From Minisyncoccota bacterium (GTDB taxonomy: Bacteria > Patescibacteriota > Minisyncoccia > Phycocordibacterales > JABAAK01): a stretch of 64,000 bases of DNA. Positions 9,926-47,097 of this stretch are shown piece by piece. Each line of letters opens with the position of its first letter. Position 1 is the first letter of the stretch. The translations under genes and the position numbers were made by a program. The notes beneath the pieces were generated by a model. It was given only the letters and a program-made list of their open reading frames with translations. It did not search any database and was not told the DNA's origin. The stretch covers positions 400,107 to 464,106 of the forward strand of contig OZ244939.1 of assembly GCA_965222235.1 (NCBI GenBank). Reading direction: 5' to 3'.

Positions 9926-10441
9926 ATGGGGTATACTGAACCTATGAATACGGCTCCGAAATATAAACACAAACCTGACGACATACAGGCACTCGTGCAG
10001 TGGCAACTGCTTGAAGAAAAAGGTGTATATTCAAGAGACAAGGAGCTCCTGATTATACTCATCGGAGCCGGCGCGGCAATACTCGCCGTCATCACCGAAA
10101 CATACATATTCGCACTGCTCGTCGGAATCGCAACCGGTATGTTCGTATACATAGGTCGCCAGAACCCTAAAAAACACCTCTTCACCATCGCCGACATAGG
10201 TGTATTCCTTGATGATGACTTTTTGTCATTTGAAGAAATACATGGGTTCAACATCATTGATGATCCGGGCGCGCGGGCGCGTCTCATATTAAAGATTCAG
10301 AAAATAATATATATCAATGAAATCGTTCCGATATATGATGTGCAGATAGACAAAATAGAGCATGCGCTGAAAGAAATGAATATCCCGAAAGACGAAACAC
10401 TGCGGCCGAACCTGCTTGACCGCATAACCCTGTCTGTGTGA
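9926..10441 (+). CDS. Hypothetical membrane protein.
   Basis: 171-aa ORF with two predicted TM helices and no recognisable family. Confidence 0.4.
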   Translation: MGYTEPMNTAPKYKHKPDDIQALVQWQLLEEKGVYSRDKELLIILIGAGAAILAVITETYIFALLVGIATGMFVYIGRQNPKKHLFTIADIGVFLDDDFLSFEEIHGFNIIDDPGARARLILKIQKIIYINEIVPIYDVQIDKIEHALKEMNIPKDETLRPNLLDRITLSV

Positions 10442-10478
10442 GTTTAAAAAATATCAGATTTGTGATATTGTAAGAAAT

Positions 10479-10568
<90 letters not shown>

Positions 10569-10800
10569 GGCGGAATATTTATACCAACAGTATCCGCTTT
10601 TATAGGTGCCGTAACAAAAGCTTGAAATACCAAAAAAGACGAGCTGATTTCACTATGATGAAGATAAATATCAATATATGGTTCCACAAACCTAAAATCC
10701 AAATGCTATTCAACACAATCAACCACATTAAATAAATTACAAATAGGGAATGTTGTACCGCCGAATATCACGATTTCGGATACCAGTCAGTGATCCTGAT

Positions 10801-10856
10801 GGTACAGTGTTGGAACTCAAAAAACAACTCACAGAAAATTTTGAAGAGTGAAAATA
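10801..10856. repeat. Left copy of a 56-bp inverted repeat. Its partner at 12308-12363 is 54/56 identical.
   Basis: ggtacagtgttggaactcaaaaaacaactcacagaaaattttgaagagtgaaaata matches the reverse complement of 12308-12363. Confidence 0.8.
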
Positions 10857-11624
10857 AATTGTGATATACTGTCACACATGCCTACATCAGCACAAATTAA
10901 ATCTCTAGAGAAAAAACTCAAGGAGTACAAGAAGCGTTTTCTCACTAGAAAACACGAGGGGCTGGACGAGGCATCAACTCGTCTAATGACAAACAATTTC
11001 CTAATCAATATACTTGGTTATGCCGAATTTGAGGAGGTTAAGACAGAATATAATATTTCTGGAGAATATGCTGATTATGTTATACAAATAGGGAGAAAAA
11101 AGCATTTTATTATTGAAGTAAAATCAATATCACTTGACCTGAGTGATAAACATCTTCGTCAAGCAACGAATTATGCAGTTAGCGAAGGTATTGACTGGAT
11201 TTTGCTCACCAACGGCACCGCATTTATGCTGTATCGCATTTTGTTTAACAAGCCAATTTCCATAAAAAAAGTATTTGAACACGACATAGGTAAAGAAAAG
11301 AATCTGCAGAGTGCCAGCAAAGATATTGCACTTCTAACTAAAAAGAGTGTTGGGAAAAATGAGCTTGAAAAACACTGGGGGCGATTTGAGGTAGTTGAGC
11401 CAGCCGGACTTAGCAAACTTCTATACCACAAAACCGTAGTAGCCAGCCTACGAAGAGTTATGAGACAGAAAACAAGCCTTTCTTTTTCCGAAGAAGAGGT
11501 GTTGGACGCACTGCATGGATTAATCACCAAACAAATTGAGAATGTGAAGCCGACAAGACCAATTGAACCACGGACAAGAAAGCCGCGCACTGTAGAAAAT
11601 AACAATACACTAAATCATGATTAA
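10848..11624 (+). CDS. PD-(D/E)xK nuclease-fold protein, resembling the type I restriction enzyme R-subunit N-terminal domain (HsdR_N-like). It stands alone.
   Basis: The motif EYADYVIQIG...HFIIEVKS has the D...E-x-K signature in the usual spacing. 258 aa. It is AT-rich relative to its flanks. Confidence 0.5.
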   Translation: MKINCDILSHMPTSAQIKSLEKKLKEYKKRFLTRKHEGLDEASTRLMTNNFLINILGYAEFEEVKTEYNISGEYADYVIQIGRKKHFIIEVKSISLDLSDKHLRQATNYAVSEGIDWILLTNGTAFMLYRILFNKPISIKKVFEHDIGKEKNLQSASKDIALLTKKSVGKNELEKHWGRFEVVEPAGLSKLLYHKTVVASLRRVMRQKTSLSFSEEEVLDALHGLITKQIENVKPTRPIEPRTRKPRTVENNNTLNHD

Positions 11625-12021
11625 GTTTGCGGACAAGAGCGCAGAGAAAAAATTTAATGAGATTTGGAATATCTCTAATAAATCTATACTGGAGAATGAA
11701 CGAGTTAAAAAATATACTACAGCCAGACGGTCCAAATGTCATTGAAAAAACTACAGCAGGTGCGGGCAACAGTGCTTGACTGTTGACTAAGGTGGAGCCT
11801 GAAAAGAATGCACCACAAAAGGTTCCGAATGAGAGAGGATTGGGTGGTAGTAGTAGACCACCATCTGAAGTAAATCCTGAAAATACTGAAAACACCGGTG
11901 AGTCTGATGGTGAAGCAAGACCGCGCCAAGAAGAAAACGAGTAATTACATGTTTTACAGATTGGTTACAGGTGATTAATGAAATCAAAAATAGCACCACA
12001 CCCTCCTCCTTTGGACTTTTT

Positions 12022-12207
12022 GCAGAGCGTTAGCGGAGCAAAAAAGACAAAGGTGGGGAAACGAAGCGAAACAGAAACACCGAGCCGAAAAGTGAAAAAA
12101 TAAGACGGGCGTGCGTACACACCACCGTCTTATTTTTGAACGAGCGAGGTGCTGTCTGTGAAGCGAAGTGGTGCTCGTTATACTACTGAGCGTGTCTCGC
12201 GCCTTTC
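12022..12207 (+). other. Conserved non-coding module, copy 1: a purine-rich tract, a rho-independent terminator-like hairpin with a T-run, then the box GAACGRGCRAGGTG...GTGAAG...CGCGCCTTTC.
   Basis: Its first 121 nt align with 31174-31294 with no net indels (see findings); overall identity by eye is about 60-65%. The hairpin taagacgg...ccgtcttatttttg is replaced in copy 2 by a different stem. Confidence 0.5.
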
Positions 12208-12307
12208 GGAGCTCCCAATTTTCTTTTTCAATTTATCCCACCGCCCCTTTTCACGCGCTTGTCACAGAACCAGTGAAGACGGAAACAGGAAAATGGTGAA
12301 AGATCTG

Positions 12308-12363
12308 TATTTTCACTCTTCAAAACTTTCTGTGAGTTGTTTTCTGAGTTCCAACACTGTACC
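12308..12363. repeat. Right copy of the 56-bp inverted repeat, 6 bp from the tRNA-Glu 3-prime end.
   Basis: Reverse complement of 10801-10856 with 2 mismatches. Confidence 0.8.
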
Positions 12364-12369
12364 TTTAGG

Positions 12370-12441
12370 TGACCCTACGGGGAATCGAACCCCGGTTTTC
12401 GCCGTGAGAGGGCGATGTCCTAGCCGCTAGACGATAGGGCC
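12370..12441 (-). tRNA. tRNA-Glu (CTC).
   Basis: The reverse complement reads ggccctatcgtctagcggctaggacatcgccCTCtcacggcgaaaaccggggttcgattccccgtagggtca. The acceptor has one G-U pair. Anticodon stem tcgcc/ggcga, T-arm cggggttcgattccccg. Confidence 0.75.
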
Positions 12442-12492
12442 GAATACGCCGTATAGTATAACACAAACAAATGTTATATAATACTGACATGC

Positions 12493-12566
12493 GGGTGATT
12501 AGCTCAGTCGGCTAGAGCGCTTCCTTGACGTGGAAGAGGTCACAGGTTCGAGCCCTGTATCGCCCA
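12493..12566 (+). tRNA. tRNA-Val (GAC).
   Basis: gggtgattagctcagtcggctagagcgcttccttGACgtggaagaggtcacaggttcgagccctgtatcgccca; all four arms pair. Confidence 0.85.
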
Positions 12567-16752: not shown

Positions 16753-17900
16753 CCCAAGTTCAAACAAATAATAGAACACCTGTCATATACCAAGTAATAC
16801 TGGAGACATATGACAAAAGCAAAGAAAAAGAGACGGGAACCGTTCACCCGTCTGAATATTCATGAACGGAGTAGTATTGAAGTGAGATACTGTGCTGACA
16901 AGAGATCCCTGCGGGAGATAGCGAAAGAGTTGGGCAGGTCACCGGGAACCATACATCGGGAAATAGGGGGAAAACCGAGAAAAGGAGTCGGACGGTACTG
17001 CGCGCTGAGGGCACAGCGGGAAGCAGAGAAAAGGATACACACCCGGGGGAGGAAAGGAGTGCTGACCGACAGAGCACTCCTTGGGTATGTGCGGGAGAAG
17101 ATGGAGGAAGGATGGTCTCCCGAGCAGGTGAGTATTCGTCTTCCCCGGGAGTTTCCGGAGGACACAACCATGCGGGTATCTCATGAGACGATATATACCT
17201 TCATATATGCGCAGATTCACCAAAGCGGACACGGTATCGTGAAACCGGGGTATCTAGACTTACGGTCTCTTCTGCCGAGAAGAAGGAAGAGACGCATACG
17301 GCAAGGAGTGAGAAACACACAGAAAACAGAACGAAGAGCGGCCTTGCCCTCCATAGAGGAGAGACCGGGGATAGAGGGGGTAATCGGTCATTGGGAAGGT
17401 GACACCATGCTCTCAAGGAAAAGCAGCGTTAGGGTAAAGAGTATGAATGAAAAGATGACCGGTCTGGCATTCTTTGAGAAAACAAAAGACGGTACCGCTG
17501 AGTCCTGTGACGCGGCAATCATCAGACGAATGCGCGCTGTCCCTCCGAGATACCGCAAGACCCTCACCCAGGACAGAGGGGCGGAGAATAGGGGGTACCG
17601 CACCGTTGAAAAAGAACTCAGTCTCTCCTGCTACTTCGCCCATCCGTACTGCTCTCATGAAAGAGGATCAAACGAGAACACCAACGGATTGTTCCGTCGG
17701 TGTTTCCCGAAGGGGACTGACTTTGACAAAAGCAATGACCGTGACATTGCCAAGGTTGAGTACCTATTGAATACCCGTCCCAGGAAACGCCTTACTGGTC
17801 TGACCCCTTACGAGGTATTCTACCGCATGACCGGTGTCAATCTCCAGAGGATGGCATATTACAAACTGACAGGTGTTCAATTAGAAGTTTGAATGTAGGC
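16753..17900 (+). mobile_element. IS30-family insertion sequence, copy 1 (1148 bp).
   Basis: It is 100% identical to 29937-31084. Imperfect terminal IRs: TTCAAAC..TAAT(A/T)GAACACCTGTCA. It ends 1 bp from the metG stop codon. Confidence 0.85.
16810..17892 (+). CDS. IS30-family DDE transposase.
   Basis: 360 aa with an N-terminal HTH, the HWEGDTM motif typical of IS30 transposases, and a DDE core. It is identical to 29994-31076. Confidence 0.9.
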   Translation: MTKAKKKRREPFTRLNIHERSSIEVRYCADKRSLREIAKELGRSPGTIHREIGGKPRKGVGRYCALRAQREAEKRIHTRGRKGVLTDRALLGYVREKMEEGWSPEQVSIRLPREFPEDTTMRVSHETIYTFIYAQIHQSGHGIVKPGYLDLRSLLPRRRKRRIRQGVRNTQKTERRAALPSIEERPGIEGVIGHWEGDTMLSRKSSVRVKSMNEKMTGLAFFEKTKDGTAESCDAAIIRRMRAVPPRYRKTLTQDRGAENRGYRTVEKELSLSCYFAHPYCSHERGSNENTNGLFRRCFPKGTDFDKSNDRDIAKVEYLLNTRPRKRLTGLTPYEVFYRMTGVNLQRMAYYKLTGVQLEV

Positions 17901-23414: not shown

Positions 23415-23487
23415 CCGCCCATAGCTCAGTTGGTAGAGCAACGGCCTTTTAAGCCGGGGGTCCCAGGTTCGAGCCCTGGTGGGCGGA
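23415..23487 (+). tRNA. tRNA-Lys (TTT).
   Basis: ccgcccatagctcagttggtagagcaacggccttTTTaagccgggggtcccaggttcgagccctggtgggcgga. Acceptor ccgccca/tgggcgg, T-arm ccaggttcgagccctgg. The first anticodon-stem pair is mismatched and the 5-prime end is an unusual C1. Confidence 0.7.
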
Positions 23488-24966
23488 CTTTCCAGTACAA
23501 GCAAAGACACATTCACTATCGCTCGTGTGGCTGTCTTGGTCCGCGCGCCCGCAGGGCGCGCGGTAGAGGGTTTTCCACGCGCCGCGGGGCGCAAAGGTCA
23601 CACCGGTGTCGGCGAGTCGGCGGTTCAAGCCAACCTCTTTGAAAAAATCCGCCAAATCGGCAGGGTCGGTGCTATCAGTAACATTTCGCATTGCAGTTGC
23701 TTGCTCAATCACCAAAAGTGCCGGTTCAAGCCACGAATCATCATCGCCCGAGACACTCCGCAGTTTCTCCTTGATATCCATCTTTTTACCAAGTAGGATA
23801 TTTTTCTTGGCAATGTATTCTTCACGGGTGATATCACCAGAAAGAGACATATCAAGAAGATGGTCCATCTGCCCCTCAAACGCCCGCAAATCAGCGCGGA
23901 GTGTCTCGGTGCGACTTACTCCCGCCTGAGCGTCTGCATTGTACAAATCGTAAAGTTCATCTGAAATTCCACCAGCTTCGGCGGGAGTAAGGGAAACTTT
24001 TTGTAGTGCTGAGCGAACCTCCTCGTCAATTCTCTCACTGCGAACATATTTACCCGCACACTTCCCTTTTTTCTTAGTGCAGTGATAGTAGGTATGCCCT
24101 TTTTGAATTGATGAGGTGATGGAACAGCCACAATGCGCGCAGACAAGCATCTGGCGGAACGGATACCGCGCCGGGTCATGCTGCCGCACTTCCCGTCCCC
24201 GCTGTTCCATAATCGCTCGGCACTGATCAAAAAGTTTCTTGGTGATAAGTGGCGTATGCGCACCCTCGTGGGTTTCGCCGCCCCACGCTACCAAACCGTA
24301 ATATATCGGATTGTTAAGTATCCAGTGAACATTGCTCGCCGGAGTAAGATTGCCACGCCTGTTTTTAAATCTGAGAGACCGAAAGGTGAACTTACCGGTG
24401 GCATATTTTTCAAAAAGCGAAACCACGAGGGGTGCATACTCGGGGTCGGGGTCTATAGTATTCGTGTTGCGGTTATTTATATACCCGAAAGGTGCTCGTG
24501 ACGGGTGGATACCCCGCCGCGCCTTATTCCTCATACCACGGCGAACATTCTCGCTGAGGTTGTCTACATAGAGTTTGCTCTGACCGAATGCGAGGGTGAG
24601 GCAGAAAATACCGTGTGGTGTATTTTCAAAAGTGTAAGTCGGAAAACGCAGAGCAGCACCGCGTTGCTCCACCAATTCAACCAGTTTTGCGCCGTCCGTC
24701 ATATTGCGGGCAAGTCGGTCCGGATGCCAGGATAAAATGCCTTCCGCCTCACCCAGGGCGATGCGACCGAGCATCGCCTCAAAAACTTTTCTCCCGGGTT
24801 GCTTGGCGGATTGTTTCTCCGTCAAAACCTCAGTCACACTGACACCATTCTTGCGAGCGAAAGCGCGCAACTCTGCAATCTGATCGGGTATACTCTGCAC
24901 CTGTTTGTCTCTGTCATCAGTGCTTTTGCGAGCATATATAAAAAGTTTTTGCAAGCGTTCGGTCAT
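23449..24966 (-). CDS. Large serine recombinase (resolvase-type catalytic domain, recombinase domain, zinc ribbon).
   Basis: Trimmed to MTERLQKLFIYARKSTDDRDKQVQSIPDQ (catalytic Ser in YARKST). The zinc ribbon is CAHCGCSIT...YYHCTKK...C. The ORF 3-prime end runs 39 bp into tRNA-Lys on the antisense strand. Confidence 0.85.
   Translation of the reverse strand: MTERLQKLFIYARKSTDDRDKQVQSIPDQIAELRAFARKNGVSVTEVLTEKQSAKQPGRKVFEAMLGRIALGEAEGILSWHPDRLARNMTDGAKLVELVEQRGAALRFPTYTFENTPHGIFCLTLAFGQSKLYVDNLSENVRRGMRNKARRGIHPSRAPFGYINNRNTNTIDPDPEYAPLVVSLFEKYATGKFTFRSLRFKNRRGNLTPASNVHWILNNPIYYGLVAWGGETHEGAHTPLITKKLFDQCRAIMEQRGREVRQHDPARYPFRQMLVCAHCGCSITSSIQKGHTYYHCTKKKGKCAGKYVRSERIDEEVRSALQKVSLTPAEAGGISDELYDLYNADAQAGVSRTETLRADLRAFEGQMDHLLDMSLSGDITREEYIAKKNILLGKKMDIKEKLRSVSGDDDSWLEPALLVIEQATAMRNVTDSTDPADLADFFKEVGLNRRLADTGVTFAPRGAWKTLYRAPCGRADQDSHTSDSECVFACTGKSAHQGSNLGPPA
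23488..23629. repeat. 142-bp perfect inverted repeat, left copy. It encodes the last ~49 codons of the recombinase and contains the palindromes ccgcgcgcccgcagggcgcgcgg and gacaccggtgtc.
   Basis: The reverse complement of 25058-25199 is identical by eye. Confidence 0.85.
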
Positions 24967-25057
24967 AGTAAACGAATTGTACCATACCGACCCCGAACAA
25001 AATAAAGTACAAAGCACCGCCCTGCCAAAATAAAAAGTTTTTTAAAAAGTGGATGGT

Positions 25058-25476
25058 CTTGAACCGCCGACTCGCCGACACCGGTGTGACCTTTGCGCCC
25101 CGCGGCGCGTGGAAAACCCTCTACCGCGCGCCCTGCGGGCGCGCGGACCAAGACAGCCACACGAGCGATAGTGAATGTGTCTTTGCTTGTACTGGAAAGT
25201 CCTCTGAACAAGTAGCACTTGAACTCAAAAAACATTTTACCGAAGACACCTCGCACGCTCCACCCGCCCCGTAACTTTAATCCCAAAAGTGCCGCCAGAC
25301 AATCGCTCCGCTTACTACGGGCTCATGCTCGCAGGCTCACACCAGCCCTCCGTGCGCTCCGCTCCCGCGCCAATCACGCCGGCAGATTCTTTTTCAATTC
25401 AGCCCGCCGCCCAACCCCGCGTGCTCGCCGTTGCACCGTGTCGGGTCGGATATGGGAGTGGACGGGTGGTTTCTGA
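25058..25476. repeat. Right inverted copy of the recombinase 3-prime cassette (25058-25199) plus a 277-bp downstream segment (25200-25476). The downstream segment recurs inverted at 31401-31676.
   Basis: The plus-strand ORF 25053-25274 encodes the same C-terminal peptide as the recombinase. The ORFs 25219-25476 and 31403-31657 encode identical 85-aa stretches. Confidence 0.8.
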
Positions 25477-25514
25477 GTGCACAATAAAGACACGACAGCA
25501 CGCGAACAAACAGC

Positions 25515-25620
25515 AAAAGGATCTGCCGGCGTGATGGGGCGGGAGAACTATATGCAATCCGCCATCTTTCCTGCTTGCAAATGCTTGCGGAAAAGGCGGA
25601 TTTCCTTTATCCGACACAGG
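25515..25620 (+). repeat. Roughly 105-bp direct repeat R1 (partner at 26145-26250) with an internal imperfect hairpin and a GCTTGC-N5-GCTTGC direct repeat.
   Basis: The two copies align at about 85% identity. Confidence 0.7.
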
Positions 25621-25647
25621 GTGTCACAAGATGTACAATGGTTTTAT

Positions 25648-26142
25648 ATGACACAAAACAGTAACGGGTCAGACAAGGAAAATCAGGAAAATGCCCGAAA
25701 TAATTATTTGGAGGCAGGAAAGAGCGCAAATCAATTGCTAATTCCCGTGTTGATTGCTGTGCTTGGTCCTACCATCGCATCTCCAGATCTTTTATACCCG
25801 GCCGCACTTATTCTTTTTCTTTCTATAATATCTCTAATTATTCATAAAATGAGACAGATGTGTTTCTTTATGGATGAAAAAAACGGCGGAAAACAATATG
25901 AAGAAAGAGAGAGATTTATCAAAAACATTCCTTGCTTTTTGTTTAGTTTTTATCTGCTCGTCATATTGACTTTTGTATTTCTGTCATATACCATCCTTAC
26001 TATGAATGAAGATCAGAAAGATTTCAAGCCGGAAAGGAGAAATTCTCCGACTCACGAAAGGGATTTTAAACCAAACAAATCGGCACCTAATACCACACCA
26101 CCTACCCCAAGTCCTCAACCCAAGCCGAAAGAAAGTCAATAA
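25648..26142 (+). CDS. Small membrane protein (2-3 TM helices) with a Pro/Thr-rich tail.
   Basis: Trimmed to MTQNSNGSDKENQ. It has hydrophobic helices and AT-rich codon usage typical of the island. Confidence 0.4.
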   Translation: MTQNSNGSDKENQENARNNYLEAGKSANQLLIPVLIAVLGPTIASPDLLYPAALILFLSIISLIIHKMRQMCFFMDEKNGGKQYEERERFIKNIPCFLFSFYLLVILTFVFLSYTILTMNEDQKDFKPERRNSPTHERDFKPNKSAPNTTPPTPSPQPKPKESQ

Positions 26143-26144
26143 GG

Positions 26145-26250
26145 GGAAAAGAATCTGCTGGTGTGATAGCAAGGGAGAACTATGCGTAATCCGCCATCTT
26201 TCCCGCTTGCAGACGCTTGCGGAAAGGGCAGATTTCCTTGTCCTGCTTGA
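26145..26250 (+). repeat. Direct repeat R2, the partner of R1.
   Basis: See R1. Confidence 0.7.
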
Positions 26251-26312
26251 TTTTATATTTATATATGTGAATAACTAAAATTGAAAGATTTTTTACTAGT
26301 ATTATGATAGTA

Positions 26313-27256
26313 ATGAGTGAGAAACATAAGGTTGTTTCGTTGTTTTCTGGTTGTGGGGGTCTTGATTTAGGTATTTTGGGAGGATTCACGGTATTCAAGA
26401 AAAAATACCAAAAACGAAAATTTGATATTGTCTGGGCAAATGATTTTGACAAGAATGCTTGTGAAACATTTAAAAAAATATAGGAGATCACATTGTTTGT
26501 GGGGATATAGCTAAACTTCTGCAAAATAAAAAAGAATTTTTAAAATTTGACAATATAGATGTGGTGATAGGCGGTTTTCCATGCCAAGATTTTAGTATCG
26601 CAGGAAAAAGAAAGGGAACACAAACAAAAAGAGGTAAACTATATAAAAGTTTTATTGAGGTTGTTGAATTATTACAACCAAAAATTTTTTTAGCCGAGAA
26701 TGTGAAAGGGATTTTATCTATAAAAAGCGGTTCTGTGATTAAAAAAATTATATCTGATTTTGAAAAAATCGGTTACAAGGTCGAGTATAAGTTGTTTCAT
26801 GTCGCTGATTTCGGAATTCCCCAAAATAGGGAGAGGGTTTTAATGGTCGGAGTTAAAAACGGAGCTGGAAATTTTATTTTTCCAAAACCAAAAACTAAAA
26901 AGAGGCTCTCAGTTGGTCAAGTAATACAAGATTTAGAACACTTACCGGAAGGTGCTATTCACAATCACTTTTGGAGTAAAGCAAGAAAGAATAGTGGACA
27001 GGGAAATACTCGTATTAATAAAAATAAAATTGCTCCGACAATGCGCGCCGAGCATCACGGAAATATAGAATACCATTGGAATAAGAGGAGGAGGTTGTCC
27101 GCAAGAGAGGCTGCAAGGATTCAATCGTTCCCTGATAACTTTATTTTTTACCCATCAACTTCCCAAGCATACAGGCAAATTGGAAACGCTGTTCCACCAG
27201 TGATGGGTTGGCATATGGCGAAAGCGATGGAGAATTTTTTTGAGAGGTCTCTATGA
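26313..27256 (+). pseudogene. DNA (cytosine-5)-methyltransferase (Dcm-type) interrupted by a -1 frameshift in an A7 tract at 26471-26477.
   Basis: The N-terminal ORF MSEKHKVVSLFSGCGGLDLG carries motif I and stops at TAG at 26478-26480. Motif IV GGFPCQDFS, motif VI ENV and motif X QIGNAVPP continue in the +1 frame (track ORF 26561-27256). One extra A restores a single ORF of about 314 aa. Confidence 0.75.
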
Positions 27257-27921
27257 TTTATGCGACAGAAAAGAACGCAACAGAAAAAGATTTTCTCTCC
27301 CTACTTGAAGAATCAAAAAACCTTCTTTTAAAAAATATAGCCACTAACAAAAATTATCAACCATTAGATTTTGAAACCTTTGTTTATGAGACGATGCGCA
27401 ATGTGGCAAAAGAAACAGTATTTGAGGGAACTATTGAACGAACTGGAAAATTTGGCTTTCCTGATGTTTTGGCAAATAGATACTTTGGGGTTGAAGTAAA
27501 GATGACAAAACAAGATAAGTGGACATCAATTGGAAACAGCATATTTGAAACATCCAGAGTTGATGATGTGGAAAGAATATTTATTCTCTTTGGAAAATTT
27601 GGCGGTAATTTTGATGCGCGTTATAAGGCATATCAAGATTGTTTACCATCAATTAAAGTGACACACTCCCCCAGATATGTTATTGACATGGAATTATCGG
27701 TCAACGAATCAATATTTGAAAAAATAGGAACTGATTATGAATCTTTCAGAAAAGATGAAAACAAGGTTCATTTAATTAAGACATATTACAAAAAGCAATT
27801 AAAAGATGGAGAGGAATTATGGTGGATGGATGAATCTCAAGAAAAAAGTGTTGCGCCAATTATTCGCTCATTTCAAAATCTTGAAGAAAAAGAAAAGAGG
27901 GTTTTGTTGTTGAGAGTGTGA
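27253..27921 (+). CDS. Candidate type II restriction endonuclease (PD-(D/E)xK).
   Basis: FGFPDVLANRYFGVEVKMTK gives D..E-x-K. The start overlaps the methyltransferase stop (ATGA). It has the island's low GC. Confidence 0.45.
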   Translation: MIYATEKNATEKDFLSLLEESKNLLLKNIATNKNYQPLDFETFVYETMRNVAKETVFEGTIERTGKFGFPDVLANRYFGVEVKMTKQDKWTSIGNSIFETSRVDDVERIFILFGKFGGNFDARYKAYQDCLPSIKVTHSPRYVIDMELSVNESIFEKIGTDYESFRKDENKVHLIKTYYKKQLKDGEELWWMDESQEKSVAPIIRSFQNLEEKEKRVLLLRV

Positions 27922-28055
27922 TTTTATTTCCAGAAATTTTTGGCAGTAGCAGATTAAAATTTGAACGGGCGGCAATTTATCTGGTCACTGAATACAATAC
28001 TGTTTGCTCTAACCTGAGAGATATTTTTACTGCGGGCGGGTAAGAGGATGTTAAT

Positions 28056-28319
28056 ATGGCAAAGGAAAGATATTGTGTTCCACATATTTACTCTGAAATG
28101 CATAAGAGGGCGAAAATAATAGAAGAAAGAATAAAAGAAATGAATAGTGAAACTCTTTTATATTATTGGCGCATTGGTCATCTAAGTAAGGATAGGGTAT
28201 CTCAATGGAAACTCCTTTTAGAAAAAAATACAAAGTCATCAATTTCCTCCGAGCGGATTAAAGATAAACCGCAAAAGATATCAATAACAGATATTTTTGA
28301 AAGTGGTTTAAATATTTAA
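28056..28319 (+). CDS. Hypothetical 87-aa protein.
   Basis: ORF between the REase candidate and vsr; no recognisable family. Confidence 0.3.
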   Translation: MAKERYCVPHIYSEMHKRAKIIEERIKEMNSETLLYYWRIGHLSKDRVSQWKLLLEKNTKSSISSERIKDKPQKISITDIFESGLNI

Positions 28320-28321
28320 AT

Positions 28322-28750
28322 ATGGCGGATAAATATACGAAAGAACAGAGATACATTATGATGTCGTCTGTTAAAAGTAGAAATAACAAAAGCACAGAAC
28401 TTGTTTTTATCTCTTTGCTCCGCACAAATAAAATAACAGGATGGCGAAGACATTATCCGATAGAGGGAACGCCTGATTTTGTTTTTCCAAAAGAAAAGAT
28501 CGCAGTATTCATTGATGGTTGTTTTTGGCATAAGTGTCCGAAGTGTTACAGAAGGCCGAAATCAAATAAAGCGTATTGGGACCAAAAAGTGGAAGACAAT
28601 CAAAGAAGAGACGCAGCAAAGAGAAGGTCCTTGCGCAAACAGGGGTGGCATGTTGTTCGCATCTGGGAACATGAATTAAGCGGGAATAACAGATCTATAA
28701 TTAAAAGGCTTCAGAAAATATTTCCGGCACATTATGATTCTATCGCTTGA
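28322..28750 (+). CDS. vsr: Very-short-patch repair endonuclease.
   Basis: It has FIDGCFWHKCPKCY and TPDFVFPKEKIAVF, the Vsr catalytic and Zn motifs. 142 aa. Confidence 0.85.
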   Translation: MADKYTKEQRYIMMSSVKSRNNKSTELVFISLLRTNKITGWRRHYPIEGTPDFVFPKEKIAVFIDGCFWHKCPKCYRRPKSNKAYWDQKVEDNQRRDAAKRRSLRKQGWHVVRIWEHELSGNNRSIIKRLQKIFPAHYDSIA

Positions 28751-29883
28751 TCATTAAAAATGCGCAGCAAATCTTTTATTCCTTTTGCAATCAAACCTTC
28801 ATCAACAGATTTTTCTTCCTCCGGGTGAGCGAACTCATGTCGTAACTTTGTGACATATGTTATATCATTCCCTGAAGCATCTTTTTCATCAGCGAGCAGT
28901 GGCTTACCTTCAGTATTATTCTTACCCGCCAAACGCTCTGAATCAAATTTGTCATATGAATTAATACCGCTCTTAATTTTAAAATGTTCGTACAACTCAA
29001 GGAAGTAAGATTCACTCAGCTGATTAAACACAAAATAATTTATCTCCGAATGAGACCTATACCCTAACACGGACCAAGAATTATCCATATGTTTTAGTGT
29101 GGTGGACTTGGTGTTCTGATCACGGGAAACCTCGTATATTTTATCATCTCTGTTCAACCTCACAAAATCCGGATCATGTGTTGTTATCGCCACTTTCACA
29201 TCAACACCGCTTCCATCTTCTTTTTTGAGCAGTTTCTTAATCATCGTGTTCAGGCTCTTTTTCCACTCCGGGTGCAGATACGCTTCTGGCTCTTCTATAA
29301 GTAGTAGTATTTTTTTGTTACCACCACTGGCGTAAATTTTTTTGTAGTATAAAATAAACGCTATAGACATTAATCTCTGAGAACCCTGCCCTATCGAATC
29401 TAAGTCAATCTCATTATCCTTCTCACGATATTGGTCAAGCGCTTTCACTCCAATTAATTTTCTCACATCATCAGGACCAAAATCAGAACCCATAGATATA
29501 ATGACCTTTTTATCCTCAACACCGCTGTCCGATAAAATTTTGTTTATCTCGTCTTCGGCTTTCTTTTTCTCCCCACTTTTATCAAACTTGCTGATTAAAT
29601 CCGACAAAATAGTTTCATCCACAATCTCATTCAATATCGGGACAACAGTTTTTGAAAATTCGCTTCCTTTTTGAGATGTTGAACATTCAGTCCTCGGATC
29701 AATTTGATCTGACCTGATATAAATAACCTCACACTCTGGGTCAACTTCTTTTTTGTAGTTTTCATGAATATGACACAAAATATTTGATTTCCCTGCATTA
29801 TTTTTTCCAGCAAAAACAGTATAATCAGCGAGTTCAAACTCAATTTTGTCAGTTATGCTTTTGTAGTTCTCTATTGAAATCAT
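28732..29883 (-). CDS. AAA_21/ABC-type ATPase of the OLD / AbiEii / PARIS-AriA / Septu-PtuA class, with no partner gene.
   Basis: It has the Walker A FAGKNNAGKSN, a Q-loop/signature-like SIGQGSQRLMSIAF, the Walker B LLLIEEPEAYLHP and an H-loop ITTHDP. 383 aa. Its start is 54 bp from the end of IS30 copy 2. Confidence 0.7.
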   Translation of the reverse strand: MISIENYKSITDKIEFELADYTVFAGKNNAGKSNILCHIHENYKKEVDPECEVIYIRSDQIDPRTECSTSQKGSEFSKTVVPILNEIVDETILSDLISKFDKSGEKKKAEDEINKILSDSGVEDKKVIISMGSDFGPDDVRKLIGVKALDQYREKDNEIDLDSIGQGSQRLMSIAFILYYKKIYASGGNKKILLLIEEPEAYLHPEWKKSLNTMIKKLLKKEDGSGVDVKVAITTHDPDFVRLNRDDKIYEVSRDQNTKSTTLKHMDNSWSVLGYRSHSEINYFVFNQLSESYFLELYEHFKIKSGINSYDKFDSERLAGKNNTEGKPLLADEKDASGNDITYVTKLRHEFAHPEEEKSVDEGLIAKGIKDLLRIFNDQAIES

Positions 29884-29936
29884 AACTGCATTCTGCCAAA
29901 ATACACCACATTGAGCAAGATGACAATATGATGCGC

Positions 29937-31084
29937 CCCAAGTTCAAACAAATAATAGAACACCTGTCATATACCAAGTAATACTGGAGACATATGACAA
30001 AAGCAAAGAAAAAGAGACGGGAACCGTTCACCCGTCTGAATATTCATGAACGGAGTAGTATTGAAGTGAGATACTGTGCTGACAAGAGATCCCTGCGGGA
30101 GATAGCGAAAGAGTTGGGCAGGTCACCGGGAACCATACATCGGGAAATAGGGGGAAAACCGAGAAAAGGAGTCGGACGGTACTGCGCGCTGAGGGCACAG
30201 CGGGAAGCAGAGAAAAGGATACACACCCGGGGGAGGAAAGGAGTGCTGACCGACAGAGCACTCCTTGGGTATGTGCGGGAGAAGATGGAGGAAGGATGGT
30301 CTCCCGAGCAGGTGAGTATTCGTCTTCCCCGGGAGTTTCCGGAGGACACAACCATGCGGGTATCTCATGAGACGATATATACCTTCATATATGCGCAGAT
30401 TCACCAAAGCGGACACGGTATCGTGAAACCGGGGTATCTAGACTTACGGTCTCTTCTGCCGAGAAGAAGGAAGAGACGCATACGGCAAGGAGTGAGAAAC
30501 ACACAGAAAACAGAACGAAGAGCGGCCTTGCCCTCCATAGAGGAGAGACCGGGGATAGAGGGGGTAATCGGTCATTGGGAAGGTGACACCATGCTCTCAA
30601 GGAAAAGCAGCGTTAGGGTAAAGAGTATGAATGAAAAGATGACCGGTCTGGCATTCTTTGAGAAAACAAAAGACGGTACCGCTGAGTCCTGTGACGCGGC
30701 AATCATCAGACGAATGCGCGCTGTCCCTCCGAGATACCGCAAGACCCTCACCCAGGACAGAGGGGCGGAGAATAGGGGGTACCGCACCGTTGAAAAAGAA
30801 CTCAGTCTCTCCTGCTACTTCGCCCATCCGTACTGCTCTCATGAAAGAGGATCAAACGAGAACACCAACGGATTGTTCCGTCGGTGTTTCCCGAAGGGGA
30901 CTGACTTTGACAAAAGCAATGACCGTGACATTGCCAAGGTTGAGTACCTATTGAATACCCGTCCCAGGAAACGCCTTACTGGTCTGACCCCTTACGAGGT
31001 ATTCTACCGCATGACCGGTGTCAATCTCCAGAGGATGGCATATTACAAACTGACAGGTGTTCAATTAGAAGTTTGAATGTAGGC
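29937..31084 (+). mobile_element. IS30-family insertion sequence, copy 2, identical to copy 1.
   Basis: It aligns base-for-base with 16753-17900 at an offset of 13184. Confidence 0.85.
29994..31076 (+). CDS. IS30-family DDE transposase, copy 2.
   Basis: Its 360-aa sequence is identical to copy 1. Confidence 0.9.
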   Translation: MTKAKKKRREPFTRLNIHERSSIEVRYCADKRSLREIAKELGRSPGTIHREIGGKPRKGVGRYCALRAQREAEKRIHTRGRKGVLTDRALLGYVREKMEEGWSPEQVSIRLPREFPEDTTMRVSHETIYTFIYAQIHQSGHGIVKPGYLDLRSLLPRRRKRRIRQGVRNTQKTERRAALPSIEERPGIEGVIGHWEGDTMLSRKSSVRVKSMNEKMTGLAFFEKTKDGTAESCDAAIIRRMRAVPPRYRKTLTQDRGAENRGYRTVEKELSLSCYFAHPYCSHERGSNENTNGLFRRCFPKGTDFDKSNDRDIAKVEYLLNTRPRKRLTGLTPYEVFYRMTGVNLQRMAYYKLTGVQLEV

Positions 31085-31173
31085 GCCACATGCGACAGAC
31101 GGATTAAAAAACACTAAGAATATTAAATATCGCTGATTAAATTGCACAGGCATTTCCGGCTCCGATGCTTTCC

Positions 31174-31349
31174 GCAGAGCGAATGCGGAGTGGAAAGAGG
31201 AGGAGTGGGAAAAGCGAGCGGAACGGAGCCGAGCCGAGCAGGAATGAAAAAACAGGAAAGGCTTGCGCATGCAATGCCTTCCTGTTTTTGAACGGGCAAG
31301 GTGAGAGTCCGTGAAGTGAGCGATGCCGTTCCCTATTCCGCGCCTTTCA
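31174..31349 (+). other. Conserved non-coding module, copy 2 (purine-rich tract, terminator-like hairpin, GAACGGGCAAGGTG box).
   Basis: Its first 121 nt align with 12022-12142 with no net indels. The hairpin aaaaacaggaaaggc...gccttcctgttttt has a different stem sequence but the same position and T-run. Confidence 0.5.
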
Positions 31350-31400
31350 TCGCCAAAGATTCTTTTACCTTTCCCCCGTGCGAGCCGTTGTCTATGAACA

Positions 31401-31800
31401 AAGAAACCACCCGTCCACTCCCATATCCGACCCGACACGGTGCAACGGCGAGCACGCGGGGTTGGGCGGCGGGCTGAATTGAAAAAGAATCTGCCGGCGT
31501 GATTGGCGCGGGAGCGGAGCGCACGGAGGGCTGGTGTGAGCCTGCGAGCATGAGCCCGTAGTAAGCGGAGCGATTGTCTGGCGGCACTTTTGGGATTAAA
31601 GTTACGGGGCGGGTGGAGCGTGCGAGGTGTCTTCGGTAAAATGTTTTTTGAGTTCAAGTGCTACTTGTTCAGAGGACTTTCCAGTACAAGCAAAGACACA
31701 CTCACTATTGCTCGTGTGACTTCCTTCTGCAACACGCCCTTCCAACCTGTGGTAGAGGGTTTTCCATGGCGCAACGCAGGACAAAGCAACGACATCGCTG
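31401..31800. repeat. Third copy (B) of the recombinase 3-prime cassette plus its downstream segment. It is in the orientation of the tRNA-Lys-proximal copy. 31401-31676 is near-identical to the reverse complement of 25200-25476; 31677 to about 31800 is a diverged recombinase 3-prime end.
   Basis: The minus-strand ORF 31602-31817 ends ...ECVFACTGKSSEQVALELKKHFTEDTSHAPPAP, as does 25053-25274. Confidence 0.75.
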
Positions 31801-31864: not shown

Positions 31865-32512
31865 ATGACTGATATTTTTATAGACGAAAGTGGAAATTTA
31901 GGGAAAGGAGAAAGATTTTTTATCATCTCGGTAATACAATTCAATTCCGACAACGATTATAAAAAATGGAAAAGAGTCGCAAGGAAAATTATAAAAAATA
32001 AAAAACACCTAAAAGAAATTAAATCTTCTTCAATGGATTACACTTTGAAGAGGGAGGTCTTGGAGCAGGCTAGAAAGCAAGATATAAAATTCAAAGTTTG
32101 GCTTGGTATTATTGATACAGATCACGACTATTACAAACAGAAATTTATAATGCAAGACAACTCTAAAGAGCTTGCTTTTAACTATACTTTAAAAAAGTTA
32201 TTCAAAGAGACAATTGCAAAAGAAATTCAAAAAGAAGTGGCCATAGTATATGTTGATCAGCGAAACACCAAAACAGGATCAAGATATTCGTTGGGTGATT
32301 ATTTAAACGCAGAAATTCTTCACGACCCGGATGTCCCACTACAAAAGATTATTATTTATTACCAAGATTCAAAGAATAATTATGGCATCCAACTATCAGA
32401 TCTGATTGCAAATATTACTTACACCAAACTTGAGCACAATAAATCAAAATATCTTTTTAAAAAATATGTGAGTCCAAGATTATCAGGTAAATGCAAATAC
32501 CCAGAGTGTTGA
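31865..32512 (+). CDS. DUF3800-family protein.
   Basis: The N-terminal MTDIFIDESGNLGKG matches the DUF3800 signature (I-F/Y-I-D-E-S-G). 215 aa. AT-rich island gene. Confidence 0.55.
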   Translation: MTDIFIDESGNLGKGERFFIISVIQFNSDNDYKKWKRVARKIIKNKKHLKEIKSSSMDYTLKREVLEQARKQDIKFKVWLGIIDTDHDYYKQKFIMQDNSKELAFNYTLKKLFKETIAKEIQKEVAIVYVDQRNTKTGSRYSLGDYLNAEILHDPDVPLQKIIIYYQDSKNNYGIQLSDLIANITYTKLEHNKSKYLFKKYVSPRLSGKCKYPEC

Positions 32513-32734
32513 GCTTGTGTATAAAACGAAGAGAGCCCCTGACGGGCTCCTTCTAAGCAACTTATACTTCGGTGCCGTATAACGACACTTAACCGGCATT
32601 ATGCTTGGGTCTCCATATAAGATTTATGCCTACAACCAGTATATACATCTTCAACCCACTTTTCCAGGTCCTTGTGAAAAACACAAAATTGGTTGACATA
32701 TAAAGAATATTTTATACCACCCCCCTTCCCCAAA

Positions 32735-32785
32735 GTAGGATATTTTTCTTGGCAATGTATTCTTCGCGGGTAATATCACTTGCCG
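32735..32785. repeat. About 50-bp fragment homologous to an internal part of the serine recombinase gene (23795-23845).
   Basis: aagtaggatatttttcttggcaatgtattcttc[g/a]cgggt[a/g]atatcac is shared at both positions. Confidence 0.6.
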
Positions 32786-32792
32786 AGGGAAG

Positions 32793-33389
32793 TCACTGGA
32801 TGATCCCGAGCAGGGAGCGGAGCACAAAAGGAGCCTCTTTCATCCCGTCATCCCCGCTGGTGAAATGACCCATATTTTTCATAATGACAATCTCCGAACC
32901 GAGTTTTTCCCTAAAATCATCCTGATTATCAAGCGGAACATCCGGGTCGTTATCGGAAAATATGGCGACACTCTTCGGTAGGTGGGAGCTCGCCTTCCTG
33001 AAATCGGGGGGCGAATCAAGCCAGTGTCTTTTGGTTTCCAAATCATCATCGGTATCATTATCGGATTCCGAGAGTCTTTTAAAGAAGCCGGCGACAAAAA
33101 CCGCGCCCCCGATTTTTATATCCCCATCTTCTGGTAGTCCTTCAAGGTAACGCACAATGGTTTGGCAACCGAGACTGTGCCCGACAAAATAGGTATTTTC
33201 ATTGACGGTGCCGACTGCATTTGATACTTCGGAAACCCAGTTGTGTATCCGTGGTTTTTCAGCCTCCGGGAGTTGTGGGATGTGAACCTCAAATTCCCTT
33301 GCTTCAAGTTCTCCTTTCAGCCATTGAAACCAATCTTCTTCCGGGTGGCCATCCCAGCCGTGCAGGATATAAACTCTTTTTTGGTTCAT
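32793..33389 (-). CDS. Alpha/beta-hydrolase of the YdeN/RBBP9 serine-hydrolase family.
   Basis: Trimmed to MNQKRVYILHGW. It has the nucleophile elbow GHSLG, and Asp/His are present later. About 198 aa. Confidence 0.65.
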   Translation of the reverse strand: MNQKRVYILHGWDGHPEEDWFQWLKGELEAREFEVHIPQLPEAEKPRIHNWVSEVSNAVGTVNENTYFVGHSLGCQTIVRYLEGLPEDGDIKIGGAVFVAGFFKRLSESDNDTDDDLETKRHWLDSPPDFRKASSHLPKSVAIFSDNDPDVPLDNQDDFREKLGSEIVIMKNMGHFTSGDDGMKEAPFVLRSLLGIIQ

Positions 33390-41753: not shown

Positions 41754-44090
41754 ATGTATATAAAAATTATATATATTAGAAACCTCCTCCTTTTATGTCT
41801 TTCTGGAATGTTTGTGGGTCTGGGACTGATAATACTGTTCTATGTATTTACTCCGTTGCCGGATGTGGAGGTCCAAAATATAGCATCAAAACAATCAACC
41901 ATTCTGGAAGACAGAAACGGTGAGTTTTTGTTTGATTTTTCAGAAAATGAAAAAAGGGTGTATACGCCGATTGAAAAAATATCACCTAATGTCATTAATG
42001 CTGTTATATCTATAGAAGACCATCTTTTTTTTGAACATAAGGGGGTGCGTATTGATTCATTTTTAAGAGCATTGGTATACAATATATTAACACTTTCATT
42101 CAGTCAGGGCGGGTCTACAATCACACAACAATTGATAAAAAATGTATACCTTACTACGGAAAAAAAGATAGAGAGGAAGATGAAGGAATTCTTACTCGCC
42201 TGGAAGATTGAAAAAGTTCTGGAAAAAGAAAAAATATTAGAGTTATACCTTAACACCATCCCGTACGGCGGTGTCATATACGGCATCAGTGAAGCGAGCA
42301 ACTTTTTCTTTGGGAAAAAACCGGATGATATAACTATTGCGGAAGCGTCCTACTTGGCGGCGATACCGAACGCCCCGACCTATTTTTCACCTTACGGAAG
42401 AAATAAAAAGGACCTGGAGAAAAGAAAGAACGCCGTACTCACACGCATGTTGGAATACAGTCTCATAACACGGGAAGAATACAATAGTGCGAGGAAAGAA
42501 AACGTCTATTTCAAAGACCGAAGACCGTCCTCAATACGGGCACCTCATTTTGTGTTTTTTGTAAAAGAACAGATTGAAAAGGAATACGGAACACATTTAA
42601 GATCTTTAAAGGGAGAAAGAATACGCACTTCCGTTGATTTAAAACTACAAAAAAGTATTGAAGAAAGTGTGGAGATGTTTGCCGAAGGTTTTGAAGAAAA
42701 ATACAGAGGAACAAATATCGCATCGGTGGTTATTGCCGCAAAGACCGGAGAAATACTCGCCATGGTGGGGTCGCGTGATTTTTTTAACGACAAGATTGAC
42801 GGAAGTGTTAATATTATCACATCTTTAAGGCAACCAGGATCAACTTTTAAGCCGATAGCATATGCAAAGGTATTTGAGAAAGGGCTGCGTCCAGAAACAA
42901 TATTGTATGACGTCCCCACCCAATTCACCAGCAGGTGTGAGGAGGATAAATTTGAAAGCACAGAAGACGGGTGTTACTCACCCGTCAACTACACAGGAAC
43001 GTTTAAGGGTCCGATTTCCCTTCGGAGCGCTCTCGCACAATCAATCAATGTGCCGGCTGTTAAGGTTTTGTATATCGCCGGTGTAAAAAATACCATAGAG
43101 CTTGCGGAAAAAATGGGCATAACATCGCTCACCAGGGGAAGTGGTCATTATGGGTTAAGTTTGGTGTTGGGTGGAGCCGAGGTTACACCGCTGGAACTTG
43201 CACAGGCATATAGTGTGTTTGCAAATGAGGGGAGATTAATCCCATACACATGGAAACCGGAAGAAAAGAGGGGTACTGGGAGAGAAATCATATCAAAAAA
43301 GGTCGCACAGAATATAACATCAATACTGAGTGATGATAGGTCCAGATCCCCTGTATTTGGAGAAAGATCCCCGCTGTATATCACAAGCCCTCAAGTTGCG
43401 GTAAAAACAGGAACAACGAACAATTCAAGAGATATATGGGTTGTCGGCTACTCTCCTGATTTGGTGGTCCTTGTGTGGGGAGGAAACTCCGACGGAACAT
43501 TGTTAGAAAACAATGCGTCAGGATTTTCACTTTCGCGACTTTTCAGAGAAATTATGCTTAAGGCATCGGCACAATATGGGGATCGGAGATCGTACTTTTC
43601 TGTAAACACAACCCCGTCAATAGGAGGACATGAAATAATATCAGGAATTGTTGATTTGGAAGATCAACACACAATCCTCCACTACATACAAAAAGAAAGA
43701 ATACATCGGAAGCCCCAAACCCCCGAAGAAGACCCACAATACAAAAACTGGGAATTTGGTGTGCAGGATTGGCTTGAACAAAATACCGACAATGAACACA
43801 CCACAACAGACACACACCGGAATGAAATATTCTCCATACAGTCTCCGGAAAAAAACACCAAAATACCGAGAGATGGTGTGGTAATCATAACGGCAACACC
43901 GATAGGAAAAGGAAACACCCAGTACGAGTTCTATGTAAATAAAAAATTAATAGGTTCATCATACATACCCCTCATCAGCTTCACTCCTTCACAGATAGTA
44001 AAGGAAAATAGTAAAAATATAACAATACAGATTATCGCAAGTGGTTCTCTCGGCGTGTTTAGTGCGGAGGAAACCTTCTCCTTCAAATAA
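41754..44090 (+). CDS. Class A penicillin-binding protein (glycosyltransferase plus transpeptidase).
   Basis: The GT51 motifs EDHLFFEHKGV and GGSTITQQL are present, with the TP motifs SxxK (STFK), SxN and KTG. 778 aa. Confidence 0.85.
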   Translation: MYIKIIYIRNLLLLCLSGMFVGLGLIILFYVFTPLPDVEVQNIASKQSTILEDRNGEFLFDFSENEKRVYTPIEKISPNVINAVISIEDHLFFEHKGVRIDSFLRALVYNILTLSFSQGGSTITQQLIKNVYLTTEKKIERKMKEFLLAWKIEKVLEKEKILELYLNTIPYGGVIYGISEASNFFFGKKPDDITIAEASYLAAIPNAPTYFSPYGRNKKDLEKRKNAVLTRMLEYSLITREEYNSARKENVYFKDRRPSSIRAPHFVFFVKEQIEKEYGTHLRSLKGERIRTSVDLKLQKSIEESVEMFAEGFEEKYRGTNIASVVIAAKTGEILAMVGSRDFFNDKIDGSVNIITSLRQPGSTFKPIAYAKVFEKGLRPETILYDVPTQFTSRCEEDKFESTEDGCYSPVNYTGTFKGPISLRSALAQSINVPAVKVLYIAGVKNTIELAEKMGITSLTRGSGHYGLSLVLGGAEVTPLELAQAYSVFANEGRLIPYTWKPEEKRGTGREIISKKVAQNITSILSDDRSRSPVFGERSPLYITSPQVAVKTGTTNNSRDIWVVGYSPDLVVLVWGGNSDGTLLENNASGFSLSRLFREIMLKASAQYGDRRSYFSVNTTPSIGGHEIISGIVDLEDQHTILHYIQKERIHRKPQTPEEDPQYKNWEFGVQDWLEQNTDNEHTTTDTHRNEIFSIQSPEKNTKIPRDGVVIITATPIGKGNTQYEFYVNKKLIGSSYIPLISFTPSQIVKENSKNITIQIIASGSLGVFSAEETFSFK

Positions 44091-44092
44091 GA

Positions 44093-45208
44093 CTACTTTT
44101 CAATAAGTGGTGATATGATGGTGGTGAGTGTCGTATCGTCAGCACCCCGTATCATAAGAGGTTTGGTTATATCATTAATGATATTAAGAATTATTCTTTC
44201 ATCAGAAATAACAGAAAGTGCATCGTTTAAGAAACGATAGTTGAATGATGGAATGGGTATGATATCACCATTTATAGTCACCGGAACGGTGTTTTGTGTT
44301 GAACCGACTGTTTCATTATCAAGCTTAAGTAGGAGAGAAGTTTTGCTTTCCACATTAAAAGATATTTTATTTAGTTTGTTGGAAAAAAGCCTTGCCTTTT
44401 TAAGAAAGTTGAGAGCATCGCTTCGAAGTAGGGTAATGTTCATATCAAAACTGGTGGGCATAATATTTTTATAATCAGGAAAATTACCTTTCACACTATT
44501 CACTTTAATAGTGATTGTTTCGGTTGAAAGGTAAATGACATCCTCACAAACATACAAACTAACATCAGTATCAGACACCCCCTCTAAAACGCGCAAGATC
44601 TTGGCAACGCTTTTATTCGGTATAAGAATTGAAATATCATTGTAGTCTTTTTTTTCCAGTAAAAATCTTATTTCAGCAAGGCGAAACGCATCAGTGGACA
44701 CAAAATAAACTGAATCATTTTTGGTATAAATATAAACACTTGCTATCTCTGGTTTGATGATACTCTCTGCGGCGGCATGCTGTACACTCCTGAACCCCTG
44801 AATTAAAACCTCTCTCTTCATCACAAAAGAGGGTGAAATATCCGGAACAGTGATTGCACCTCCATCCTCCTCACTGTTTTCCAGAATAAATATCTCCGAT
44901 GTGCTTGTGTTAGTCTTAATGATAAGTTTTTTCTCAATCAATTCAACAGTTACCACCATATCAATCAAAGAGCTTACAGCACCATCAAGAACCTGTATGG
45001 GAACAAAAATAGAACCTTCTTTTGATTCGTTAATATTAACACGATACATAACATTAAAATCAAATTGGTGTGTTTTAAACAAGACCTTGTCCGATGAAAC
45101 TTCTATATAAATACCACTAAAAGAAGAACTGGGAATATCTTTTGAAACCACTTTTGTTAAGATGGTTGTTATGTTTTTTAATATTTCTGTTGATATTGAA
45201 AATTTCAT
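44093..45208 (-). CDS. dnaN: DNA polymerase III beta sliding clamp.
   Basis: 371 aa with a three-domain clamp pattern. It is immediately downstream of dnaA. Confidence 0.85.
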   Translation of the reverse strand: MKFSISTEILKNITTILTKVVSKDIPSSSFSGIYIEVSSDKVLFKTHQFDFNVMYRVNINESKEGSIFVPIQVLDGAVSSLIDMVVTVELIEKKLIIKTNTSTSEIFILENSEEDGGAITVPDISPSFVMKREVLIQGFRSVQHAAAESIIKPEIASVYIYTKNDSVYFVSTDAFRLAEIRFLLEKKDYNDISILIPNKSVAKILRVLEGVSDTDVSLYVCEDVIYLSTETITIKVNSVKGNFPDYKNIMPTSFDMNITLLRSDALNFLKKARLFSNKLNKISFNVESKTSLLLKLDNETVGSTQNTVPVTINGDIIPIPSFNYRFLNDALSVISDERIILNIINDITKPLMIRGADDTTLTTIISPLIEK

Positions 45209-46974: not shown

Positions 46975-47097
46975 ATGAAAATAAAAGTTAAAAAAAGAAT
47001 GAAAAAGCACGGTTTTTTAGCGCGCAGCAAAACCCCGGGCGGTCGTCGCGTGCTTGCCCGCCGAAGATCTAAAGGAAGGTCTAAGATAAGTGTATAA
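46975..47097 (+). CDS. rpmH: 50S ribosomal protein L34.
   Basis: Hand translation gives [40 protein letters not shown]. This gene is not in the ORF track because it is under 60 aa. Confidence 0.85.

Follow-up and report, generated by a model that had tools for sequence, protein, structure and literature searches.

A 64,000-nucleotide (nt) stretch of the genome of a Minisyncoccota bacterium (contig OZ244939.1, forward strand; hereafter, the window) contains a C5-cytosine methyltransferase (MTase) gene, at positions 26313 to 27256, that is interrupted at a run of seven adenines (A7) and is followed by a candidate restriction endonuclease (REase) gene and by vsr, which encodes a very-short-patch repair endonuclease. 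Is the interruption a reversible switch, a mark of decay, or an artifact of sequencing? These three options were offered in a preliminary description of the same DNA. The evidence presented below favors decay: the locus is very probably a recently decayed Type II restriction-modification (R-M) plus Vsr cassette, with the gene order M-R-vsr (M, methyltransferase; R, REase), that resides on a mobile island and in which both M and R are pseudogenes.

The methyltransferase gene is split at a run of adenines

Translation in all frames confirmed that the methyltransferase gene is a split reading frame. Frame 0 starts at the ATG at 26313 (or at 26304), encodes motif I (VVSLFSGCGGLDLG), and reads MSEKHKVVSLFSGCGGLDLG...CETFKKI before it ends at the TAG at 26481 to 26483. 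The resulting 5′ fragment of the pseudogene (26313 to 26483, plus strand; 56 amino acids [aa] in the open reading frame [ORF] list) aligns with the intact relatives at loci L002 and L003 from codon 1. The 3′ part (26477 to 27256, plus strand) continues in the −1 frame as NIGDH...GGFPCQDFS...AENVKG...PQNRER...RQIGNAVPP, carries motifs IV, VI, VIII, IX, and X, and ends at the TGA at 27254 to 27256. The point at which the frame changes is tightly bounded. On the 3′ side, a single ATA codon separates the A7 run (26472 to 26478, plus strand) from the TAG, and on the 5′ side, a TAA at 26471 to 26473 in the −1 frame limits the possible change to about 26474 to 26480, that is, to the A-run itself. The preliminary description had correctly recognized a split caused by a 1-nt deficit in the A7 run; its coordinates for the run (26471 to 26477) and for the TAG (26478 to 26480) are superseded by those given here.

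Insertion of one A yields, as had been predicted, a single methyltransferase of 314 aa. Across the whole catalytic domain, this repaired protein matches the C5-cytosine methyltransferase profiles PF00145 (2.2e-77, 261 bits; cut-off, 22) and TIGR00675 (9.3e-73, 245.7 bits; cut-off, 100.65). The signature motifs I (FxGxGG), IV (PCQ), VI (ENV), VIII (QxRxR), and X (GNAVP) are all present, motif I in frame 0 and motifs IV to X in the −1 frame; because no single frame holds the full set, the sequenced gene counts as a pseudogene. The nearest solved relative is M.HaeIII (2.6e-43; PDB 1dct and 3ubt), which shares motifs I, IV, VI, VIII, IX, and X with the repaired protein, whereas the Escherichia coli Dcm-like chains 3lx6 and 3me5 match at only ∼1e-17. 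The earlier label “Dcm-type” is therefore apt only loosely, in the generic sense of a C5-MTase.

The run is interrupted in the closest relatives

The A7 site was compared with that in other genomes by DNA alignment and by codon: 5 relatives are close, with methyltransferases 75 to 80% identical to that of the window, and about 80 are distant. A search of 5.8 billion protein clusters yielded no full-length methyltransferase allele closer than 80% identity (best full-length match, 80%), and no copy above 80% protein identity was found in the GTDB species representatives or the JGI metagenomes. At the site where the window reads AAAAAAA, the relatives carry AGAAAAAA (F-R-K-N). In the five closest intact methyltransferases (L002, L120, L003, L118, and L119), the codons are TTT (A/C)G(A/G) AAA AAT, with the longest A-run being 5 to 6 nt, and the same codons in the window read TTT-AAAAAAA-T, equivalent to AGAAAAAA minus one nucleotide. 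As judged from this alignment, the lost nucleotide could be either the interrupting G itself or an A that was lost following a G-to-A change; either way, a single deletion produced the uninterrupted A7 run and the frameshift together.

Since the run is interrupted in all five closest relatives, the tract is not conserved. An A8 run (K-K-N) is confined to some distant intact homologs, with less than 47% identity. Furthermore, A7 runs are no commoner here than chance predicts: dinucleotide shuffling gives 6.1 ± 2.3 homopolymers of at least 7 nt for the island, which contains 7, and 2.4 ± 1.4 for the M gene, which contains 4.

One of the five relatives, L118 (ERZ21861969, a 589-kb contig), encodes a 318-aa methyltransferase (77% identity), downstream of which lie Peptidase_M78 and PIN genes instead of an REase gene. 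This gene is apparently an intact orphan member of the same MTase lineage.

The REase gene is also broken

The methyltransferase gene overlaps the REase gene by the 4-nt ATGA at 27253 to 27256, in agreement with the coupling that had been reported. What had been missed is that the REase gene is broken into three pieces. Fragment 1 (27253 to 27921, plus strand; 222 aa) contains the PD-(D/E)xK motif as FPD...GVEVK and ends at the TGA at 27919 to 27921. Fragment 2 (27898 to 28043, plus strand, frame +2; 41 codons, ...GFVVESVILFPEIFGSS...TAGG) ends at the TAA at 28041 to 28043, and fragment 3 (28044 to 28319, plus strand) continues in the frame of fragment 2 through the C-terminal part of about 91 codons to the native stop, the TAA at 28317 to 28319. 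DNA alignment with two intact relatives identified the two lesions that separate these pieces: a 1-bp deletion at about 27893 to 27898, where GAAAA-GAGGG stands against GAAAAGGAGG / GAAAAAGAGA, and an AAA-to-TAA substitution (Lys to stop) at 28041 to 28043. Thus, one of the alternatives raised earlier, namely, that the REase is dead as well, is borne out by comparison with the intact homologs.

The three pieces belong to a single protein. Used jointly as a query, they retrieve 797 homologs, the best intact ones of which are 343 to 353 aa long and cover 99 to 100% of the query; 100% identity is reached by one database entry only, the 222-aa fragment of the window itself. In an alignment of 39 sequences, the fragments tile the whole family, and near-invariant residues continue past the first lesion (P227, E228, E238, R239, R256, D257, G262, G263, Y305, W306, and W319). 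The PADLOC model REase_II covers residues 45 to 323 of the repaired REase and so spans both lesions. The motif residues F69, P70, D71 ... E81, V82, and K83 are near invariant in the same 39 sequences and are present in fragment 1. The candidate family has a restriction endonuclease fold, with sequence identities of 7 to 13% to solved enzymes; a Foldseek search gave no significant match. The closest known group is the EcoRV-like (blunt-cutter) branch of Type IIP PD-(D/E)xK enzymes, such as R.SwaI, EcoRV, HincII, and NlaIV; unlike these, the candidate family has about 130 aa at the C terminus that form an additional conserved domain. The family (27253 to 28319 in the window; also L002, L003, and L119), with its EcoRV/SwaI-like fold and about 800 homologs, mostly from Patescibacteria, has no Pfam or NCBIfam model.

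Layout of the cassette in the window and in intact relatives

Downstream of the REase pieces lies vsr, as had been stated (28322 to 28750, plus strand). It is apparently intact, encodes 142 aa, and matches TIGR00632 above the curated cut-off over the full length of the profile (1.4e-31, 109.2 bits; cut-off, 97.85; positions 1 to 119 of 119) as well as PF03852 (3.7e-17, 62.4 bits). The adjacent M-R order is shared with L002, L003, L119, L120, L039, L041, and L005, and Vsr also follows M-R in the relative L002. The presence of a Vsr gene beside a 5-methylcytosine (m5C) MTase recalls the Dcm-Vsr pair of E. coli; unlike in that pair, the MTase here is a distant one and stands within an M-R-vsr cassette.

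M and R are each intact in a single frame in all 7 of the other loci that carry both genes. Conversely, neither ORF is intact in the window, where M carries one frameshift and R carries one frameshift and one nonsense codon. Before these lesions, the locus would have operated as a Type IIP M-R pair to which Vsr was accessory. All three lesions are present in an independent assembly, a Logan contig (L001; run ERR13605531, reported from two samples) that is 100% identical to the window over 3,794 bp (26173 to 29966).

Probable recent decay of the cassette

Under the reading that we consider very probable, the cassette would have entered a Kaiserbacteria-like Patescibacteria genome by horizontal transfer, as part of a mobile island of low GC content. 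The REase would have been inactivated first, and the methyltransferase, having become dispensable, would later have gained its own frameshift from an ancestral TTT AGA AAA AAT. The A7 run would then be a mutational scar, at most a former A8 hotspot, and not an evolved switch. The REase is placed first because a cell in which R is still active does not survive the loss of M, as is established for Type II R-M systems and their post-segregational killing.

Both pseudogenes are almost unchanged apart from their lesions. M keeps 116 of the 118 positions that are at least 95% conserved in 117 homologs, intact homologs losing 1.2 such positions on average; for R, the figure is 92 of 99 family-conserved positions. 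Compared with the closest intact relatives, which themselves show 0 to 3 private losses at conserved positions, M shows none and R shows four, all conservative. Taken with the intact vsr, these near-unchanged pseudogenes imply that the decay is recent. R, with two lesions, has drifted slightly more than M, which has one lesion and no private losses, a pattern that fits the death of the REase before that of the methyltransferase. The excess of private changes in R is weak, however; it agrees with recent decay but does not in itself prove which gene was lost first.

Decayed Type II R-M systems, and orphan methyltransferases left by the loss of the REase, have been catalogued, for example, in Helicobacter pylori. 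The M-R pair described here, with point lesions in the REase, resembles such cases (see also PMC3936762 and PMC9465063), and the likeness extends to the frameshift of the MTase at a short homopolymer and to the location on horizontally acquired DNA. Given post-segregational killing, R then M would be the only viable route here. What sets the present locus apart is the Patescibacteria host, a member of the candidate phyla radiation (CPR), the unmodeled REase family, and the added vsr. Among the options of the preliminary description, decay is favored, as both M and the REase carry lesions.

Several points weigh against this reading. Except for the missing base, M is pristine, which would be equally expected of a switchable or miscalled gene. 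The intact vsr could mean that methylation still matters, and a minority A8 subpopulation may exist alongside A7. The order R then M is itself inferred from post-segregational killing rather than demonstrated, and no conspecific genome was found that would show the history of the allele in this lineage, the nearest PolA being 68% identical.

Alternative explanations

A first alternative, and a very unlikely one, is that the A-run toggles between A7 (OFF) and A8 (ON) in a mixed population, making M a phase-variable, now orphan methyltransferase similar to those that drive phasevarions. In its favor, the frame can change solely inside the A-run, the addition of one A gives back a protein that has every motif and is normally conserved, and the occurrence of K-K-N as A8 in some distant intact homologs suggests that an A8 ON allele would be viable. 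Furthermore, many Patescibacteria do not have MutS/MutL, which would raise slippage rates. Nevertheless, the run shows neither the length of a hypermutable repeat nor, across orthologs, the variation in length of a phase-variable tract: it is interrupted in the five closest relatives, such runs are as frequent as chance predicts, and A7 is present in both assemblies. No ON allele appeared in the search of the protein clusters described above, and the partner REase is irreversibly dead. The switch proposed in the preliminary description thus finds no support, the run being short, made by deletion, and absent from the closest relatives.

Comparison with established phase-variable systems leads the same way. 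In the phasevarions of Neisseria, Haemophilus, and H. pylori (PMC4209511, PMC5953494), an MTase ORF is likewise broken at a homopolymer, such that a change of ±1 restores the frame; the tract discussed here differs in being only A7, in not being enriched, and in lying beside a dead REase, with no counterpart in close relatives and no ON allele seen. The working cut-offs for phase-variable homopolymers in PhasomeIt are at least 9 for G and at least 11 for A/T, far above A7; even for a G7 tract, the switching rate of <1e-5 was considered insufficient for phase variation to be efficient (PMC5953494). A related scenario, in which the methyltransferase became a reversible A7/A8 contingency gene only after the death of the REase, as an orphan, phase-variable enzyme with an intact Vsr partner and perhaps a low-level product of slippage by tRNA-Lys or RNA polymerase, in a host that may be devoid of mismatch repair, seems scarcely probable.

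It is likewise most improbable that the true sequence is A8 and that an intact orphan methyltransferase with Vsr stands beside a genuinely dead REase. M is otherwise undamaged, vsr is intact, and an orphan M beside a decayed R is a common end state of R-M decay, all of which would suit such an error. The independent k-mer assembly is identical, however, over its entire 3.8-kb match, which implies accurate reads; it ends 30 nt (k − 1) into an IS30-like repeat, as a k-mer graph predicts. The window contains 45 other homopolymers of at least 7 nt, and runs of 7 to 8 nt inside PolA (881-aa ORF), PBP1 (778 aa), and UvrD (656 aa) leave these Pfam-verified full-length ORFs unbroken, just as M itself stays in frame across its other three runs of at least 7 nt. 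Moreover, one of the three lesions of the cassette is a substitution, and, because the relatives carry AGAAAAAA and not A8, the error would require an extra G-to-A change. The option of a sequencing error, as a cause of these lesions, is accordingly unlikely.

Recoding is hardly to be expected either. Under this explanation, full-length methyltransferase would be made at a low level through a −1 ribosomal slip of tRNA-Lys on AAA AAA A or through transcriptional slippage on the A7 run. The geometry, and the geometry only, is suitable, in that the overlap between the two frames coincides with the A-run and the right downstream frame is reached by a −1 shift; such a slip would read F-K-K-N-I-G, the native sequence. 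Slippage is known to occur at A-rich heptamers (A AAA AAG in dnaX and those of insertion sequence [IS] elements) and at long A-runs. Against this, the zero frame reads AAA AAA ATA, without a canonical in-frame X XXY YYZ heptamer, and folding of positions 26440 to 26580 revealed no stimulatory structure (z = +0.96, with folding at least as good in 167 of 200 shuffles). Substantial transcriptional slippage also occurs on runs longer than A7, every homolog examined is encoded in a single frame, with nothing conserved or programmed, and a dead REase removes the need for the product. Low-level slippage on A7 is physically possible, being neither required nor indicated. A programmed −1 frameshift was rejected because no structure beyond that of shuffles, no slippery heptamer, and no conservation of the two-frame layout was found. 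Recoding of TAA was rejected because ordinary stops are used in the long housekeeping ORFs of the host.

The mobile island and its host

The cassette lies on an island at about 26.0 to 30.0 kb that stands out in the GC profile, with 35% GC within DNA of ∼51% GC; its core corresponds to the stretch matched by the Logan contig. The surrounding mobile-element context spans 25158 to 31718 and is delimited by a pair of 317-bp inverted repeats (25158 to 25474 and 31402 to 31718, 99.4% identical) that enclose the 5.9-kb R-M island. To the left of the cassette are a tRNA-Lys gene (23415 to 23488) and a gene for a large serine recombinase (23449 to 25017, minus strand; PF00239, PF07508, and PF13408), the latter enclosed by another inverted-repeat pair (23485 to 23647 and 25038 to 25202, 97%). 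A 45-bp core located directly 3′ of the tRNA-Lys gene occurs three times, at 23485 to 23529 (plus), 25158 to 25202 (reverse complement), and 31674 to 31718 (plus). This layout of repeats resembles nested att-like sites or invertible segments.

Immediately 5′ of the methyltransferase gene, a 93-nt direct repeat (25515 to 25607 and 26147 to 26239, 84% identity) flanks a 221-aa ORF (25477 to 26142) for which no family match was obtained; the left end of the Logan contig, at 26173, falls inside the second copy of this repeat. On the other side of the cassette, an Old/AriA/GajA-like AAA_15 ATPase of 383 aa (28732 to 29883, minus strand; PADLOC Old, 1.6e-28; AriA, 6.2e-27) is convergent with vsr, with a 19-nt overlap. 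It is solitary, without a Toprim or nuclease partner, and may be a remnant of another defense system. Two IS30-like elements of 1,148 bp (16753 to 17900 and 29937 to 31084), each encoding a 360-aa transposase with an HTH_38 domain, are 100% identical, which implies recent transposition; the second copy adjoins the R-M island.

Other low-GC patches in the window (10000 to 12500, 32000 to 33000, and 44000 to 48000; 31 to 42% GC against ∼51%) may be additional horizontally acquired islands. The first of these lies between the genes for tRNA-Ser and tRNA-Glu and contains a 56-nt inverted repeat (10801 to 10856 and 12308 to 12363). Elsewhere, at 59176 to 59643, three tandem 156-nt units (92 to 100% identical) occur in a 1,183-aa ORF with a DnaJ domain.

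The host PolA is, among named genomes, closest to those of Candidatus Kaiserbacteria (57%), Paceibacterota, and Parcubacteria, which identifies the host as a Kaiserbacteria-like patescibacterium; the 641-kb contig probably represents most of its genome. Conversely, the closest relatives of M and R are found in Campbellbacteria and other, lower-GC Patescibacteria, which points to horizontal transfer of the cassette within the Patescibacteria radiation.

Implications

The feature is real and ordinary, very probably a freshly pseudogenized R-M-vsr cassette. If heterogeneity between A7 and A8 were true, it would represent the first phase variation of a methyltransferase in Patescibacteria and the CPR, but nothing here suggests so. 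For annotation, the consequence is that M and R are to be labeled as pseudogenes, accompanied by vsr, and that the locus should not be presented as an R-M system that is active or can switch; otherwise, it matters little. Its value lies rather in recording the decay of an R-M system, cleanly and in a form that can be dated, on a mobile island of a reduced CPR genome; furthermore, it draws attention to a widespread, mostly patescibacterial family of REases that awaits a profile model.
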